A stretch of 35,239 nt of DNA from a virus (Duplodnaviria; Heunggongvirae; Uroviricota; Caudoviricetes), in the IMG/VR virus record IMGVR_UViG_2718218139_000010, positions 1 to 35,239 of that record; one strand, written 5' to 3'. How positions within the stretch are numbered: position 1 is the first letter of the stretch; every line of letters starts with the position of its first letter. The position numbers were made by a program. Positions 15,001-18,000 of the stretch are shown piece after piece.

Positions 15001-18000
15001 TGCTTCGCCTGCTTTTTCGCCTCAGCTTCGTAAAACTCCAGCGTGGCACCTTCAGTACGGTCAAGACTAATCGCCACATCTGGCAACAACAGTGACGGAT
15101 ACCCACCAATTTCCAGTGCCACAGTAACAGTAATCTTATCCGGGTAATTATTTATCCCTTTAACACCCAGTTCGTATTTTTTCTTCATCGCTTTACTCTC
15201 CCCGCGCCGCCTTACGACGGTCCTCTCTGATTTTGAAATACAGGTTAGTCAGATACGTCAGCAGGCCAAACAGCAGACTCCCCAGCACACCTATCGCCAC
15301 CCACTGGGACGGAGAGACTTTGTCCAGCAGCTGCAGTAACCAGTATCCCGTCCCCACCGCTGACGTGGTGTATGACACACCCGTTGTGATTTTTTCCATC
15401 TGATGTATGTCTCCGTCACCGCCGACAGAAAATGAAAGTAAAGGAAAACAAAAAGCCGCCAGTGTCACCCACTGACGGCCAACTCCGGGAGCCGTGATTA
15501 TGGCATTCAGGCTCTGCTAAAAATGCCAGATAACATTCCGGCCCCCTGGTTCAGGTTATAAATGACACAATATCTTGACAACATCCGTCACTGTCTGTCA
15601 GAAAATATACCGCCAGGCATAAGTATCATGTGAAATCCAACTATCCTTTTGAGCCAGCACCTCTCCACCGAAAGTCAGTGCTGGCTGTTTTTTTCCTTAA
15701 TAAAGCATCTGTAACTGAAACAATCCGCATATTGATAATATATTGACAGGCAACATTGCTGTCTGTGAAAAATAAGTCTCTACAAACATATAAGGCCTTT
15801 TAGCCAGCGTCTTCTTTCAGGTCAGTCGCTGGCTTTTTTTATTATGCTGCCGGTGCATTTATCTCCAGCATCAGACTTTCTATCTCAACGCCATACGCTG
15901 CATTTTTTGTAACATCCGTCAGCGTCAGCGCATTCAGTCCCAGTGTCAGACTGTCTTTTATAACCTGGAATGCCGGGCCAGCCACTCCATTCAGTTTCGG
16001 AGTAACCGTGGCACTGCCGGCGGTGAACACCAGCTCCAGCGTCTGCCAGTCGTTACCGTAATCGCCGAACTCCCCCAGCTTCGTGTTTCCGGCTTTCCTG
16101 TGATGCATCAGATTCACTCTGCCGTCAGTGGTCTGAGTGAAGTACGACATCAGGAACGGATTACCGGTACCCGTCATCGCCACACCATCAGGAACGGGAG
16201 CATCCGTATACAGATAAATCCCCAGCCCGAACTGATTGTTGGTCAGTGCGCCTGACAGGCGGAACTTACAGGTCAGTCTGCCGCCCTGTGTCAGCAGGGT
16301 AATTGCGTCATCCACCGGATGCGTCAGGGACCAGGTTTTATTGCTCTGCTTGGTGATCTTAAATACACCATCTGACAACTGAATTCCGCCATCTTTAATG
16401 CTCCAGCCCTGCGCAGCAGCCTCTCCGGCTGCCGGCAGCAGGGAGATTGTGCGAACGGACGTATCTGCAGACGGACCCGATGGCGTGTTGCCGCCGGGCG
16501 AGGGTTTGATTTCCGGTGCCTTACCACTGATGAAGGCTGAGGTGCGCCCGGCTGCGTTCAGAATAGCGGTTGCCAGACGATCCGGAATAATGCTCCTGCG
16601 CGCCCATGAACTGAAATGTGTCGGGCGGTTTGATGATACCTGGTTTCCATTCGTTCTCGATGCCGCACCGTAATATCCTGATGCCGGAATATCCGGATCT
16701 TCTGCCGGCGCGTTAGTGGCGGTATTGACGCCGTTACCGTCTGTCATGAACGGCACAAAATAAACGCCCTCACTCTCCCTGTTTTTGTACGCCCCGTAAA
16801 TGGTGTTGTACTGCGTGCCGTAGGTGTTTTTCCAGTAATACGTCGTGTCACCACAAATCCACGGCACATTTACAGCACTGCCACCATGACACTGCGCGTT
16901 AAACACAGTGAGGTCAGCACGAAACTGCTTCAGCATGGCTGTAAACAGCGCAGGTTGCTGTGCGTAGGTGGCGGCGCTCATGTCAAACTCTCCCTGCATC
17001 CAGCACACCGCCAGCAACACATTTTTCGGGTTCTTCTGTAATGCAGCTTTGGTGCGCGCAATCAGGTCCTGATATAACGGTTTACCCACACCCCAGCGCG
17101 CCGAATCCTGGCTGGCCCCCGTGTCCGCACTGAATGTCCCCTCCGCGCCCTGGGTAAATGCCGAACCACCACGACAGCATGGTACCAGCAGGATCCCCGC
17201 ATTATTCGGGATATACGGGAGCAGTTTTTTGGCAATATGAAGTCCCTGCCCCACACAGCCGTACTGCCCTTTGCTCAGGTCTGCCTTCGGATGATTCAGC
17301 GTACTCATATCCTGCACATCATGCAGGCAGTGGTCAGCCGGGATGATGTCGTTATATCTGCAGGCAGCCCCGCCCGGCGTCACTGTACTGCGGCGCGCCA
17401 GCTGTTTAATGCGCGGATCCGGAGCATCGTATGAATCCGGCAGCGGAAGCCCTTCACCGTAAGCCATGGCATTGGACTGCCCGGCCAGTACGATGACGTA
17501 GTACCACTCCGGCTCAGTTGCACCACTGACCACCACATCACCTTCTGCTGCAATCGCCTGCATCAGGGTATAAGGGGTTATGGCCACCGGACTACCAAAC
17601 GGCTGCCAGCCCTCTTTCAGTTTGTGTGTCAGCTTTTCCGCAAGGTCTGACGGCGACGCCGCCCTGACAACATCATAATGTTTAAATGTCATTATTCCTC
17701 CCGGCCGGGATAGTGTATTAAATCAGATATGGAGTGGGCTGTAGTCCGGAAGCCTGAATGACACACGGGGACTACAGCCCAAGAAATGAAAAAAGGCCAC
17801 GCAGTTGCGCAGCCTGATAAACCCTGGTTAAAATCCACACGATAACAACACAACAATATCAGTATCTAATGCTATTGCCCGAACCCACTCGGGCATTTTT
17901 TACCCATAAAAAAGCCCCTCCGGAGAGGGGCATGTTTGCATGCACATTCTTTTTTTTTGCATGGTGCCGGGTGCCTCCCGGTGAATTCAGTATCAGCACC

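Follow-up and report, generated by a model that had tools for sequence, protein, structure and literature searches.

A nanS-p esterase gene beside tciA and tciB in the late region of a defective lambdoid prophage

Why would a lambdoid late region that lacks the Shiga toxin (Stx) genes carry nanS-p, the esterase gene that Stx phages possess next to their toxin cargo? The question is raised by the IMG/VR virus record IMGVR_UViG_2718218139_000010 (Duplodnaviria; Heunggongvirae; Uroviricota; Caudoviricetes), all 35,239 nucleotides (nt) of which (positions 1 to 35,239) were analyzed and are referred to below as the window. A preliminary description of this DNA reported a nanS-p gene, no Stx A or B open reading frame (ORF) between the late antiterminator gene Q and the lysis cassette, and a TerB-like gene in the slot between Q and nanS-p, and offered two readings, a Stx-negative relative of Stx phages or a prophage that had lost, or never acquired, the toxin. 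The present analysis supports this proposal and narrows it to a Stx-negative relative with an alternative cargo, because toxin-free prophages are collinear with the locus (96.5-97.8% identity), Q belongs to the Q82 family, and no stx scar is present in the interval. The locus is very probably the late region of a defective Stx-negative lambdoid prophage in which the moron slot holds tciA and tciB instead of tRNA genes and stxAB, and nanS-p is a resident late gene.

The minus strand of the window shows a lambdoid late region with the gene order DUF968, RusA, Q, TerB, DUF3927, the 616-amino acid (aa) ORF that is the subject of this analysis, holin, YdfR, a split endolysin and Rz (see Table 1 for coordinates and supporting matches).

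The NanS-p protein

The esterase ORF contains zero internal stop codons, and a GGAGG ribosome-binding site is located 7 nt upstream of its ATG. A Pfam search identifies DUF1737 (PF08410) in residues 3-50 (E=1.8e-15), the SASA esterase domain (PF03629) in residues 66-262 (E=1.9e-12), and the lectin-like DUF6645 (PF20350) in residues 467-577 (E=4.6e-18). Residues 59-379 match the solved structure of Escherichia coli NanS, 3PT5 (E=8.5e-121), and residues 421-613 match the structure of a phage NanS-p C-terminal domain, 6YP6 (E=1.1e-29). Ser73 in the GQSN motif and His359 in the HFSS motif align with their counterparts in 3PT5, which we take to be Ser19 and His301 of NanS, and are retained in all six aligned homologs; the nanS-p of H-19B was left out of the protein alignment, given that the 1990s record is frameshifted there, and other homologs were used. 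The chromosomal NanS (YjhS, 3PT5) thus shares with the protein from the window a homologous catalytic domain and the same Ser/His positions, but it lacks both the N-terminal DUF1737 and the C-terminal lectin-like domain and is not phage-borne. The protein is 98.4% identical to an E. coli allele, 95.5% identical to gp71 of phage 434, and 56.7% identical to L0105 of phage 933W. An NCBIfam search was uninformative for the esterase, Q, TciB and YdfR. The catalytic domain with its Ser and His residues, the two flanking domains, and the location between the Q/cargo slot and the lysis genes identify this gene as an intact nanS-p, as initially proposed.

Contents of the interval between Q and nanS-p

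To look for the toxin genes, Stx1A and Stx1B from H-19B and Stx2A and Stx2B from 933W were used as tblastn queries against the whole window, with matches recorded up to E<=100. The best match in the whole window has E=0.15 and lies outside the interval between Q and nanS-p; inside this interval (17693-18930), those checked among the matches listed have E values of at least 3.5. A blastn search with the complete Q-to-S regions of H-19B and 933W aligned no stx DNA to the window. ARAGORN detects zero tRNA or tmRNA genes across the window, and Rfam likewise finds no tRNA in it. The locus therefore has neither of the marks of a Stx-converting phage, that is, stxA and stxB between Q and the lysis cassette and ileZ/argN/argO-type tRNA genes upstream of the cargo; such tRNA genes are present in many, although not all, Stx phages. 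Both negative statements of the preliminary description, on Stx ORFs and on tRNA genes, are borne out.

The TerB-like gene reported for the slot is genuine, with matches to PF05099 and PHROG 632, but it is not the only occupant: tciB and two small RNAs (sRNAs), STnc100 and AgvB, are also there. The GTG start codon of tciB overlaps the stop codon of tciA by 4 nt, and its E. coli homologs are annotated as DUF3927, so that a TerB family protein is followed by an overlapping small membrane protein of the DUF3927 family, the arrangement that identifies the TciA/TerB-TciB moron pair. As protein-coding cargo, tciA fills the slot that holds stxAB in Stx phages. The names tciA-C come from the annotation of phage P1, in which these genes score as non-essential (PMC10695390). 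None of the PADLOC defense-system models matched TerB or TciB.

The start region of tciA (18664-18700, minus strand) is unusual in that a run of seven adenines (A7) lies just 3' of a well-positioned ATG (AAAGGAA-N7-ATG). From this ATG, the reading frame is open for 16 codons only, and TerB has to be read from a TTG start 4 nt downstream; the source assembly and O157:H7 have the same tciA call. A sequencing error was considered as the source of this frameshift and rejected, as O157:H7 has the A7 allele too, annotated there with the TTG start. The tciA gene of E. coli 2013C-3342 has A6, and that of PPyecE_EH1910 has an interrupted A-run; both have a normal ATG in the TerB frame. It is very unlikely that the A7 run, instead of being a neutral allele, turns the cargo gene on and off, or attenuates it, by slippage.

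The remainder of the interval is occupied by sRNAs and terminators. STnc100 ends in a hairpin at 17931-17914, and the convergent AgvB contains the CACAACA GcvB-target motif and has its own terminator at 17876-17895 (plus strand). AgvB is a sponge of GcvB and aids growth in bovine rectal mucus (PMC4104026). Next to Q, a tR'-like intrinsic terminator marks the end of the short leader that polymerase, once modified by Q, has to traverse; the segment with this terminator is common to the non-Stx prophage L006 of O157:H7. A second terminator-like hairpin precedes nanS-p, and positions 15100-19100 contain 12 terminator-like sites, compared to 3.9 expected by chance. Upon induction, Q-modified RNA polymerase would read through three intrinsic terminators, such that nanS-p would be co-expressed with the lysis genes. 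This prediction combines the layout with published data: late-gene induction of nanS-p is documented (PMC8065619), and transcript data for Stx phages support the co-expression of nanS-p with the lysis genes (PMC8065619, PMC10462455).

The organization of this locus, that is, a moron slot at PR', convergent STnc100 and AgvB/AsxR sRNAs, and nanS-p as a general lambdoid late gene, has already been published. In particular, moron coding sequences have been found downstream of the Q-antiterminated PR', together with convergent sRNAs (Tree et al. 2014, PMC4104026), and the same arrangement of the moron site is seen in the Sakai prophages Sp3, 4, 9, 10, 11, 15 and 17 and in the Stx2 phage Sp5 (PMC4104026).

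Relatives of the locus and the origin of the slot

The Stx1a phages H-19B and YYZ-2008 and the Stx2a phage 933W share with the window the succession of Q, terminators, cargo, STnc100, a convergent short sRNA, nanS-p, S, R and Rz. They differ in having stxAB instead of tciAB as the cargo, a Q of a different family, and tRNA genes, of which the window has none; in addition, 933W has AsxR in place of AgvB and a NanS-p with no more than 56.7% identity. Homology to H-19B (96% over the stretch between STnc100 and the holin) extends from the holin across nanS-p (15000-17988) and resumes at 18038-18080; homology to 933W (71-89%) falls into four separate segments and reaches 18084. The edges at 18080-18084 correspond to approximately 87-95 nt past the stxB stop codon in H-19B and 933W, and the STnc100 family begins about 75-80 nt past stxB in both phages. 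Given that the homology starts at the 5' end of STnc100, shortly after stxB in these phages, tciAB occupies the exact stx slot.

On the other side of this edge, from 18084 up to 18825, the window is collinear with toxin-free prophages that carry tciAB, namely, those of E. coli 2013C-3342 (97.8% identity) and O157:H7 7.1_Anguil (96.5%). More generally, the non-Stx lambdoid prophages of enterohemorrhagic and enteropathogenic E. coli (O157:H7 7.1_Anguil, NZ_CP076232; E. coli 2013C-3342; PPyecE_EH1910, LC567835; JLK-2012) have the same gene order as the window, are 94.7-97.8% identical to it at the DNA level from the holin through tciA, and possess the same STnc100/AgvB pair; the TTG-start allele of tciA is shared with O157:H7. 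In 7.1_Anguil, the order is DUF968-RusA-Q-tRNAs-TerB-DUF3927-esterase-holin-YdfR. Unlike these prophages, the window lacks the block of about 410 nt with ileZ/argN/argO-type tRNA genes between tR' and tciA, and its R gene is interrupted by the insertion sequence (IS) IS600. The Q regions of the window and of the 7.1_Anguil prophage share only 83% identity.

At the position of the tRNA block, 18826-18838, the window has 13 unrelated nt, where O157:H7 7.1_Anguil has the block of about 410 nt with three tRNA genes (Ile, Arg, Arg). In E. coli 2013C-3342, tRNA genes (Arg, Ile) are found just 5' of tciA. The tRNA block behaves as an insertable module in its own right, placed between tR' and the cargo genes.

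The Q gene itself (mechanical ORF with a GTG start at 19626; 229 aa in the source-assembly call) shows 76% DNA identity to Q of phage 82. Its nearest relatives in the phage collection are non-Stx 'PPompW' prophages (83%), and the phage collection includes no record in which this allele adjoins stx. Phage 434 (OL657226), a classic toxin-free lambdoid phage isolated in the 1950s, likewise has its esterase between a Q82-like Q and a pinholin. It resembles the window in having this type of Q, TciB, the pinholin and the SASA esterase (95.5% identical, with 100% identity in the C-terminal domain), but carries another membrane-protein cargo in place of TerB and is a complete, viable phage.

The frequency of the arrangement was assessed in 5,426 complete E. 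coli genomes. The segment 17450-19150, which includes the 5' end of nanS-p, the sRNAs, tciAB and the 3' end of Q, is present at >=80% coverage in at least 309 of these genomes, including non-Stx O157:H7 prophages; the matches listed for this query end at or before the Q stop codon. Sequences with any match to nanS-p, partial matches included, occur in 7,768 places in 2,185 genomes (median of 2 and maximum of 14 per genome), and 1,391 genomes have nanS-p at >=80% coverage. For comparison, stx1 is found in 360 places (349 genomes) and stx2 in 741 places (601 genomes). With 7,768 nanS-p-like places versus about 1,100 for stx, at most about one in seven nanS-p-like copies could lie beside a toxin operon. 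In agreement with these counts, nanS-p is known from non-Stx prophages (PMC10462455), and fewer than 3% of the chromosomal esterase-PasA-holin loci neighbor stx (bioRxiv 10.64898/2026.05.13.724894). The surprise at nanS-p without stx that was implicit in the preliminary description is hence misplaced, since most nanS-p copies in E. coli are not beside stx; nanS-p without stx is the rule rather than the exception, and each element of the locus comes from a described family. We conclude that nanS-p is a resident late gene of the phage lineage and not an appendage of the toxin.

These comparisons also bear on the possibility that the prophage descends from a Stx1a phage in which stxAB, and perhaps the Q/tRNA module, was replaced or deleted, with nanS-p left as a relic. 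Such a history is compatible with the 96% identity of positions 15000-17988 to H-19B and many other Stx1a phages and with a break in homology exactly at the stxB-proximal boundary, and repeated loss of stx has been considered possible for stx-less esterase loci (bioRxiv 10.64898/2026.05.13.724894). However, zero stx fragments are detectable at the protein or DNA level, the sequence 5' of the break is collinear up to 18825 with tciAB-bearing non-Stx prophages (96.5-97.8%), in the phage collection, Q alleles of this type are not seen beside stx, nanS-p copies are about seven times as numerous as those of stx, and phage 434 has the esterase without stx. Loss of the toxin is therefore improbable. 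The comparisons favor alternative cargo in a modular slot, and this preference would apply less cleanly to the nanS-p half because in mosaic phages the two histories are not fully separable.

Three observations weigh against a toxin-free late region with alternative cargo: the segment from nanS-p to the holin is closest, among sequenced phages, to those of Stx1a phages (96%), which leaves a Stx1-phage ancestry of that half conceivable; the pR' promoter could not be placed with a consensus scan; and the excess of nanS-p-like places over stx is computed with partial matches taken in. With these included in the balance, a resident nanS-p next to a tciAB-bearing slot is still the best explanation of the locus. 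The right-hand edge of the slot, with STnc100 as its boundary mark, is formed by the conserved block of STnc100/AgvB, nanS-p and the lysis cassette that is common to Stx and non-Stx phages, and this block could provide the homology for the exchange of cargo cassettes via recombination.

State of the prophage and possible roles of NanS-p

The prophage is defective. The IS600 copy at 13341-14604, flanked by a 3-bp GAC target duplication, interrupts the endolysin gene R; its in silico removal restores a 177-aa lysozyme, with 171 of the 178 aligned positions (stop codon included) identical to PPyecE_EH1910. The gene for the large terminase is broken in two, with an ATPase ORF at 9123-10127 and a nuclease ORF at 8466-9080. 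The terminase genes adjoin an IS66-family element (5889-8305) with three ORFs; the E. coli loci matched here contain an annotated ISEc23. No head or tail genes were recognized between the IS66 element and the effector genes described below, and the two ORFs scanned in this region produced no Pfam match.

The split endolysin, the broken terminase beside the IS66 element, and the lack of recognized head and tail genes in the window might be taken to mean that nanS-p is a silent or inactive leftover of a decaying prophage. This is quite improbable: the ORF is full length, follows a good ribosome-binding site, retains its catalytic residues and is 97-98% identical to other alleles. Moreover, IS600 seems to have inserted recently, as its target duplication is undamaged and R is restored upon excision, and the multiple nanS-p alleles of strain EDL933, all of them prophage-encoded, give active esterases (PMC8065619).

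By homology, the NanS-like domain is predicted to remove, with the Ser73/His359 dyad, 9-O-acetyl groups, converting Neu5,9Ac2 to Neu5Ac, and to act on mucin glycans as well; the resulting Neu5Ac could be catabolized by E. coli. The C-terminal lectin-like (jelly-roll) domain probably binds carbohydrate and would target the enzyme to glycans. Because the endolysin and the terminase are broken and no head or tail genes are recognized, any benefit would stem from esterase that the lysogen produces and that is released by other routes.

The N-terminal domain suggests a different function. In phage phi24B, the DUF1737 domain of the NanS-p homolog gp84, after processing, anchors on capsid hexons, as determined by cryo-electron microscopy and proteomics (bioRxiv 10.64898/2026.04.10.717836), and DUF1737 of the NanS-p analyzed here could be a capsid-binding module of the same kind. 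Hence the proposal that the primary role of NanS-p is structural, as a capsid-decorating protein for glycan binding or modification by the virion rather than a fitness factor of the lysogen, which would explain its presence regardless of the toxin. As the primary role, this is rather doubtful: in the alignment with 933W L0105, used as a stand-in for phi24B gp84, DUF1737 reaches only 58% identity, phi24B is a T=9 podovirus, and the prophage in the window has no remaining capsid genes. Furthermore, a structural role is compatible with a benefit from the esterase, so that the two are not exclusive; by analogy with phi24B, the ancestral role of NanS-p may have been partly structural.

Downstream of nanS-p, the region between the esterase and the holin contains a candidate site for the PasA sRNA. 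In the closely related phage YYZ-2008, PasA has been placed between these two genes (bioRxiv 10.64898/2026.05.13.724894), and positions 15000-17988 are 96.0% identical overall to YYZ-2008 (NC_011356), with the match spanning the candidate region.

Several additional features were noticed in the window. A second IS600 copy (32815-34078), between the exonuclease gene and int, is 100% identical to the copy in R and in direct orientation to it, and both have intact 3-bp target duplications (GAC at 13341-14604 and TTC at 32815-34078); recombination between the two copies would remove a stretch of about 18 kb in which Q, tciAB, the sRNAs and nanS-p all lie. Opposite in strand to the late genes, a ParD/ParE-type toxin-antitoxin pair (21394-22019, plus strand; Pfam families from the source-assembly gene calls) separates the nin-like region from DUF968. 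The early-left region encodes the DicF sRNA (29411-29462, plus strand; Rfam score of 55.9 bits versus the gathering threshold of 48), which, together with YdaS/YdaT-type genes and a short helix-turn-helix repressor (26425-27617), is indicative of a Qin/Rac-like immunity region. Two type III effector-like genes, both on the minus strand, lie at the far end of the prophage: a gene for a NleC-like zinc protease (1-987; Peptidase_M85, E=8e-113), the ORF of which reaches the first base of the window, and a gene for a NleL/SopA-like HECT E3 ligase with pentapeptide repeats (1241-3613; 790 aa). The window matches NCBI assembly GCA_003015325.1, contig PVMG01000001.1, the source assembly referred to above, which was identified through exact protein matches. 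A Shigella origin, suggested at first by IS600, was rejected in view of this assembly and of the nleC-like and nleL-like effector genes. None of the complete E. coli genomes in the collection holds the whole window as such, the best match showing about 94-95% identity over 85% of the query, and the exact IS600/R junction has 0 matches in species-representative genomes.

Table 1. Features of the late region, listed in the direction of late transcription
Feature	Coordinates	Strand	Details
DUF968 protein	19983-21041	-	
RusA	19617-19982	-	
Late antiterminator Q, Q82 family, 229 aa	18931..19620	-	PF06323 E=2.6e-82; PHROG 304; source-assembly gene call
tR'-like intrinsic terminator	18845..18868	-	hairpin and T-run, about 60 nt past the Q stop
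tciA, TerB family, 142 aa	18264..18692	-	TTG start; PF05099 E=2.2e-11; PHROG 632 'tellurite resistance, moron' E=5.6e-64
tciB-like small membrane protein, DUF3927, 55 aa	18100..18267	-	PHROG 1470 E=4e-30; PF13064 (source assembly)
STnc100-family sRNA	17902..18095	-	Rfam RF02076, 143.1 bits (gathering 47); full length, model positions 1-206
AgvB anti-GcvB sponge sRNA, convergent with STnc100	17840..17901	+	Rfam RF02702, 91.7 bits (gathering 56); 62/62 positions
Second terminator-like hairpin, 5' of nanS-p	17794..17815	-	
nanS-p, three-domain sialate O-acetylesterase, 616 aa	15842..17692	-	intact
Esterase-holin intergenic region	15469..15841	-	terminator-like hairpins; candidate PasA site
S21-type (class II/pinholin) holin, 68 aa	15193..15399	-	PF04971 E=2.1e-32; source-assembly gene call
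YdfR/DUF1327 protein	14844..15188	-	PF07041 E=9.3e-45
Endolysin R, split by IS600	12993..14793	-	IS at 13341-14604
Rz i-spanin	12201..12695	-	PF03245 E=1.6e-49; source-assembly gene call
Candidate Rz1, 61-aa ORF embedded in Rz	12290-12475	-	basis: position inside Rz only

Taken alone, the finding is of little weight and amounts to the correct reading of a known type of locus. It serves, however, as a caution that nanS-p is not a marker of Shiga-toxin phages, and the conserved sRNA/nanS-p block beside the slot is the kind of homology by which a toxin cassette could swap in or out.

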